64,000 nt of DNA from the NCBI GenBank assembly GCA_001244265.2, contig CDLV01000004.1, positions 1,426,001 through 1,490,000 of the forward strand. Reading direction: 5' to 3'. The notes beneath the pieces were generated by a model. It was not told the DNA's origin. It did not search any database and saw nothing but the letters and a program-made list of their open reading frames with translations. Positions 43,004-48,392 of this stretch are shown here, piece after piece. Position numbers and translations under genes: made by a program. The first letter of the stretch is position 1. Each line of letters starts with the position of its first letter. Origin of the DNA: Microbotryum violaceum (Eukaryota).

Positions 43004-48392
<5,389 letters not shown>

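Follow-up and report, generated by a model that had tools for sequence, protein, structure and literature searches.

We propose that the minus strand of a Ty3/Gypsy family of Microbotryum violaceum, and of a wide clade of related fungal-type chromoviruses, is probably primed by the 3' end of the element's own RNA, consisting of R and the poly(A) tail, after which replication would follow the standard course. From the sequence evidence presented here we give this reading a probability of about 0.65. With somewhat less confidence, we also lean towards regarding this as a fourth kind of primer in a broad fungal chromovirus clade: the genomic RNA would use its own polyadenylated 3' end, held against the 5' leader by U8-9:poly(A) pairing and by an R:leader stem that is imperfect by design, with the RNA circularised and the first strand transfer taking the form of an intramolecular strand displacement. 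If the model is true, the question of how T-rich sites are primed is answered with exact coordinates and priming is tied to 3'-end processing and tail length. Annotators would then gain a rule for R/U5 and for the primer site in elements that are now scored without one.

The family was studied in a stretch of 64 kb (G000:C2:1426001-1490000, hereafter the window) and then in the 33 Mb and 20 contigs of the genome. In the window we found four elements of one Ty3/Gypsy family, A to D, together with a solo LTR and a 3' remnant; their coordinates are collected in the table below. Along element C the Pfam matches come in the order RVP_2, RVT_1, RT_RNaseH, Integrase_H2C2 and rve, that is protease-RT-RNase H-integrase, and the coding matches (protease, RT, RNase H, integrase, chromodomain) fall in three frames. 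The chromodomain (PF00385, E 2.1e-13, residues 709-756 of 777) is C-terminal to the integrase. The ends are also those of a chromovirus, with TG...CA LTRs, a PPT and a 5-bp TSD, which has at most one mismatch in 35 of 42 LTR pairs. The nearest proteins are from Microbotryum species, the top family-level matches having 76-92% identity. A recent burst of near-identical copies has been described for Gypsy-like elements of Microbotryum (PMC5381629), to which our family can be likened at the level of genus and description, its closest proteins being from Microbotryum; the passages available from that paper contain neither 'PBS' nor 'conversion', and priming is not described in them. Copia-type coding remnants (RVT_2, Retrotran_gag_2) are interspersed with the Gypsy elements of the window, at 2925-4541, 53411-56969 and 60912-62792.

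Features of the window, with positions counted from its first nucleotide
Feature	Position	Strand	Remarks
Element A	11555..16599	+	mosaic; C-like 5' part with variant 11713; B-like 3' part with 3'-LTR variant 16396
Element B	20581..24940	-	short internal type; 5'-LTR variant 24725; 3'-LTR variant 20784 common to A
Element C	43142..48243	-	Ty3/Gypsy chromovirus, nested in D; LTRs 48021-48243 and 43142-43364
Element D	40536..59627	+	second subfamily; TSD GACAA; interrupted by C and other insertions; 5'-LTR variant 40758
Solo LTR	58769..58991	+	TSD ACAGG; end canonical
3' remnant	2396..2929	+	PPT and LTR; end canonical
5'-LTR end of C	48021..48033	-	variant base at 48027, found also in A only among 60 genome sites
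Primer site of C, part 1	48011..48020	-	one spacer C and T9; without tRNA complement
Primer site of C, part 2	47997..48010	-	14-nt leader; pairs with LTR nt 163-175 (4-bp proximal stem, 1x2 loop, distal stem)
LTR nt 163-175, 3' LTR of C	43190..43202	-	putative 3' end of R; putative poly(A) site after 43190; with tail, candidate primer
LTR nt 163-175, 5' LTR of C	48069..48081	-	would be the primer under Tf1-like self-priming
U5 of C 5' LTR, 48 nt	48021..48068	-	predicted from the poly(A) site
Polypurine tract of C	43365..43376	-	sequence
Primer site of A (C, T9, leader)	11720..11743	+	sequence

Every 5' LTR of the family is followed by a C, a T-run and a 14-nt leader, and exactly C+T9 is present in 41 of 55 copies. 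More generally, the families have T8-9 one base after the LTR, and the ~14 nt behind this run pair with a part of the LTR located 23-77 nt before its end. When all LTR positions were scanned with an added A-tail, the best duplex with the primer site ended at LTR nt 175/176 in both subfamilies, with the tail paired to U9, next a stem of 4 bp, then a 1x2 loop and a distal stem. Two more families of the same genome have the same build with different letters. Related loci were also collected from metagenome contigs (61) and viral contigs (1); CA, one base and T7-9 were present upstream of gag-pol in 26 of the 34 related loci that had enough upstream DNA. The motif was absent in the other 8, in most of which no LTR could be located, and the single locus of the viral contigs, a distant one, does not have it. 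CA-C-T9-like junctions were also seen in other repeats (L145:790, L148:604, L153:1789, L156:1864); the T-runs of these, of L241 and of one L202 match were left uncounted, no LTR being established. On one metagenome contig (L233:9230-9460) a 3' LTR after pol and a PPT is followed by C-T8 and then by unrelated DNA, possibly a retained primer copy; this T-run has no pairing leader, the locus shows no 5' LTR for a TSD comparison, and it was not counted as a further example. A short hairpin forms the end of U5 in this family (48021-48044, minus strand, in C), and a different one seems to stand directly before the terminal CA in many relatives.

Three primer types were distinguished in a survey of LTR elements, namely the whole tRNA, the half tRNA and the 5' self-primer, and in the part of that survey available to us self-priming is recognised when at least 10 nt of the LTR can pair with a stretch that begins 0-5 nt downstream of it (PMC6317226). 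TGG at 0-5 nt from the 5' LTR, our criterion for tRNA priming, was found in 0 of 23 families, and the longest perfect LTR complement was only 3-6 nt in all 23. We also looked for a run of at least five A in the 230 nt upstream of the T-run (or to the contig end) and found none in any of the 23 families; the U-run is therefore without a templated partner there.

The pairing between LTR and leader was then evaluated by permutation, using 29 elements with usable LTR sequence which, after removal of six near-duplicates, represent 23 families. The cognate LTR:leader duplex had a mean of -16.5 kcal/mol, versus -9.8 +/- 0.9 kcal/mol for permuted pairs, and none of 100,000 permutations reached it. When the leader was slid by 5-40 nt, the signal dropped to -8 to -11. 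The cognate leader ranked first of 29 in 11 elements and 13th to 17th in three, and 12 of the 23 families beat their own shuffles at 10/200 or better; in F2 and F3a the unconstrained best site differed from the homologous one. The same build was seen in four loci outside the permutation set (L202, L209, L231, L245). The base that follows the paired segment in the 29 elements is A in 13, T in 11, G in 4 and C in 1, which fits a cleavage site poorly. The 5' copy of the segment can form this LTR:leader stem as well, in a 126-nt fold that is no more stable than its shuffles (z 0.15), so that covariation is silent on which of the two copies pairs. The distance of a putative TATA box leans against a start of the RNA at this segment: TATATA is located 47-135 nt upstream of the segment end in 11 of 23 families, at 75-135 nt in 8 of them and at 47-51 nt in 3, mostly too distant for the segment to be the 5' end of the RNA.

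A search of the genome for the predicted junctions gave four loci (L141-L144). In L142, 2.6 kb of the RNA 3' end run through PPT, U3 and R and end at nt 175 followed by A21, all of this captured inside a unit of another small element and the whole flanked by the TSD GGTTC. Since the tail is longer than the genomic T9 and the context is that of a 3' LTR, this one event is best read as carrying a probable true poly(A) tail. L144, which belongs to a third subfamily, has U3-R-A7 at the same site. L141 and L143 have the order PPT-LTR-C-T9 followed by the complement of R and not by the leader, and the LTRs of the two differ at 9 of 245 positions. In L141, a single event, the strand on the internal side stops ~3 nt past the A-run, as expected with the usual destruction of U5 RNA. 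For L141, L143 and L144, fold-back of DNA at a microhomology of 5 bp is another possible origin. Genome-wide scans by gap pattern found A-runs only after LTR nt 175 (2 loci) and none in the 26 nt that follow the U5 anchor, and an exact-match search for tailed fossils of families F2 and F3 found none. For L142 we also considered that a family X might have an oligo-T site at which RNA of the Gypsy family acts as primer in trans; this was rejected, no T-run following the X LTR in 29 of 30 loci and the junction being on the X PPT side. A small non-coding family (L180:1400-1980; L165-L194) has a ~137-bp LTR-like end that resembles the termini of the Gypsy family, with 55 end matches in the genome. 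It occurs solo with TSDs and also as mirror-image units with two inverted LTRs and the PPTs inside.

In the model that we propose, the transcript would be polyadenylated after LTR nt 175/176, a position given by the one retrocopy L142. The last ~13 nt of R would then pair with the leader and the tail with U8-9; the pairing itself is indicated by covariation, and the 3' copy is presumably the one used. The end of the tail, trimmed or looped to ~9 A, would be extended across the spacer base, U5 and the 5' R, a junction that is found in two aberrant genomic ends. The new DNA, a perfect complement of R, would displace the imperfect R:leader duplex, which would amount to an intramolecular first-strand transfer, and the conserved internal loop would let the new DNA displace the leader. 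Plus-strand synthesis and the second transfer over the A/T run would be standard, and by this established pathway both LTRs would inherit the 5' U5. Oligo-U/poly(A) priming had already been raised by the sequence-only reading. Annealing of the tail at the primer site beside the 5' LTR is supported by the present data. The geometry suggested for it, in which the minus strand would begin where the RNA ends and the poly(A) tail would follow the terminal CA, is not. The A-runs of the genomic fossils follow nt 175 and not U5, and the tail appears instead to prime ordinary strong-stop DNA at the 5' primer site.

The closest known mode is that of Tf1 of Schizosaccharomyces pombe, in which the first 11 nt of the RNA are cut off by RNase H and pair at the primer site (PMC7175516). 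The two share the chromovirus architecture, the absence of a tRNA site and the pairing of an own LTR-derived RNA segment beside the 5' LTR, as far as Tf1 is described in the part of the source available. In our family, however, the 10 nt beside the LTR are C+T9 without LTR partner, and the paired segment is imperfect, begins 10 nt away and ends where the retrocopy has its poly(A) tail. We also weighed self-priming from the 5' copy: the RNA would start near LTR nt 160, the segment would pair with the leader, RNase H would cut after nt 175, and RT would copy U9, the spacer and U5 as DNA. Such a mode, which is known from related chromoviruses (PMC6317226, PMC7175516, both as available in part), accounts for the covariation and for the L141/L143 junctions, needs no A after the segment and agrees with the stem folding with the 5' copy, and in 3 families TATATA is only 47-51 nt upstream. 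Under it, though, the conserved U8-9 has no role, 10 bp too many remain after the terminal CA, and the A21 at the exact site in L142 is left unaccounted for. If the RNA ends at nt 175, a cut there would in addition leave strong-stop DNA without R for the transfer. The published length of complement is reached in none of the 23 families and TATATA is 75-135 nt upstream in 8, and we consider this alternative improbable.

Slightly less probable again is priming in trans by whatever poly(A) tail is at hand, in which case the LTR:leader stem would serve only to present the U-run as part of a 5' scaffold. The predicted fold of the 5' region has U5 in a loop closed by this stem and most of the U-run poorly paired, and both U-run and covariation would be accounted for. 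But the coincidence of the tailed position with the stem end in L142 would be accidental, and what follows T9 in the two retained ends is the element's own R instead of foreign sequence.

Priming by the element's own R-poly(A) end can be compared with other T-rich or unusual primer sites through the parts of the reports available to us. Most plant Tcn1 elements are predicted to use 5' self-priming (PMC6317226). In SM-Tcn1 of Selaginella a conserved thymine-rich stretch follows the 5' LTR, evidence was reported for neither tRNA nor self-priming, and the mechanism was called unclear (PMC2864245); novel priming mechanisms were proposed for Tcn2-5 of Cryptococcus (review PMC7175516). From these descriptions, our family resembles SM-Tcn1 (Tcn1 clade) by the T-rich stretch after the 5' LTR and Tcn2-5 by a proposed non-standard priming. 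A literature search over titles and the first part of abstracts, with few subscription papers and with 'poly(A)' unmatchable as written, returned no description of poly(A) self-priming of LTR elements, and nothing on it is found in the available parts of PMC10886601 and PMC3601003. On the literature searched, the poly(A)-primed mode may be a new variant of self-priming, and an earlier proposal may exist for the Cryptococcus Tcn elements.

The copying of the 5' U5 into both LTRs means that our model predicts no asymmetry between LTR ends, which fits the genome-wide counts given below. In the window, all ten LTR ends read by the sequence-only reading match the assembled contigs. The 3' and solo LTR ends are canonical in 6 of 6 cases (2929, 16599, 20581, 43142, 58991, 59627), T>A at -7 is common to the 5' LTR ends of A (11713) and C (48027), and the 5' LTR end has G>C at -8 in B (24725) and C>T at -2 in D (40758). 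A and C do have different TSDs, as had been stated (GTCAT/GTCAT for A; CTCAG/CTCGG, with one mismatch, for C).

Over the genome, 42 LTR pairs were built, and 35 with matched TSDs were retained after removal of 7 with a TSD mismatch of at least 2. For the four window pairs, an ascertained set, 4 of 12 substitutions fall in the last 8 nt versus 0.49 expected (p=0.001). For the 31 pairs outside the window, 3 of 92 do so versus 3.58 expected (p=0.70), and for all 35 pairs the count is 7 of 104 versus 4.08 (p=0.11). Among distinct LTR ends of the genome, 45 of 52 are canonical on the 5' side and 49 of 51 on the 3' side; with the window removed, variant ends number 3/48 and 2/46, respectively. The A/C variant is present at 2 of the 60 sites with LTR end and T-run in the genome scan, which are A and C themselves, and three further LTR plus T-run sites (L261-L263) are ordinary or truncated 5' ends. 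The asymmetry is local and not a property of the family. It had been taken as a sign that each LTR inherits its terminal ~8 nt independently of the other; this idea is contradicted by the lack of excess outside the window, by the confinement of the A/C variant to A and C and by the genome-wide alignment, in which the mismatches are spread along the LTR, a pattern that the earlier reading had itself named as contrary to it. Three terminal variants in four neighbouring elements, with A/C counted once, are more than expected, and chance together with ascertainment may account for this.

The base shared by A and C has very probably been copied between neighbours, by ectopic gene conversion or by cross-talk in the assembly, the variants of B and D being private changes after insertion. 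A and C differ by 3 substitutions in the first 1.7 kb (in addition to a 58-nt LTR deletion) and by 31 in the remaining 3.3 kb. A and B differ by 5 substitutions and a few small gaps over the last 3.9 kb, though B is of the shorter internal type. A change at nt 20 of the 3' LTR only is common to A and B, which is the mirror image of the A/C case, and A, B and C are mutually nearest among 33 copies. A tree was built from 31 internal regions (31 of 42 rows, after leaving out second-subfamily copies, two split pairs, one mis-paired duplicate and two rearranged copies). In this tree, 5 of the 6 starred branches pair neighbours in opposite orientation 2-75 kb apart and the sixth pairs two contigs; C groups with A/B at 91/86, under the starred level. 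Exchange between A and C, seen in the mosaic A and in the tree, had been given beforehand as an explanation that would defeat separate inheritance.

Standard replication gives both LTRs the same variant; a tract exchanged after insertion changes only the part that it covers, which gives one-sided variants. Ectopic gene conversion acts between nearby repeats, and the likeness is as follows: long tracts are common to neighbours with different TSDs, and one LTR is covered and the other is not. The difference is that, in assembled contigs, the same pattern may also come from assembly cross-talk. One neighbour pair also has a shortened T6 primer site in common. L091 is a duplicate of the C 5' junction, with ~235 bp of flank in common, and its end is canonical; this suggests that the C variant arose after insertion, even if the L091 LTR may itself have been overwritten. 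This second C 5' junction (L091 / L122:5454-5929 versus window 48001-48478) is 2.3 Mb away on the same contig and has another 3' flank. Such exchange between neighbours biases the dating of LTR pairs, and shared variants are poor evidence of descent.

We regard it as unlikely, while giving it some weight, that the window owes its terminal variants to mistakes of assembly or polishing next to the T9 homopolymer, with cross-talk among neighbouring repeats that are nearly identical. The variants are 2-8 nt from the homopolymer, transversions make up 6 of the 12 window LTR-pair substitutions, and the excess likeness of neighbours is systematic, which could be another product of polishing cross-talk. 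Against this, 45 of 48 5' ends outside the window are clean despite the same homopolymer. Errors of this kind would touch only the variants and not the priming model. Very improbable is the model first drawn from the window, in which minus-strand synthesis begins at the RNA 3' end, the terminal CA is the polyadenylation site and the final ~8 nt of each LTR are passed on independently: the mismatches within the terminal 8 nt in 4 of 4 window elements (p=0.001 for the window alone), the variant ends at 7/52 on the 5' side versus 2/51 on the 3' side (window included) and the base common to A and C despite different TSDs are outweighed by 3 substitutions versus 3.58 expected outside the window, the restriction of the A/C variant to 2 of 60 sites, the mirror case at nt 20 of A and B, the absence of any A-run after U5 in the genome and, in one event, the stop of the L141 internal-side strand ~3 nt past the A-run.

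The closest relatives are neighbours in opposite orientation with different TSDs for L069/L070, L079/L080, L087/L088, L082/L083 and A/B of the window. This likeness of neighbour pairs was seen on the two largest contigs, and corresponds either to strong local homogenisation or to assembly cross-talk. Four copies (L065, L098, L113, L115) are rearranged, with inverted internal segments joined at LTR ends in an autointegration-like manner. Finally, a 58-nt LTR unit is located between 24-nt direct repeats (11555-11719, 59462-59627); roughly one in four of the 42 pairs have it missing in a single LTR, no pair in both, and two 5' LTRs have it twice.
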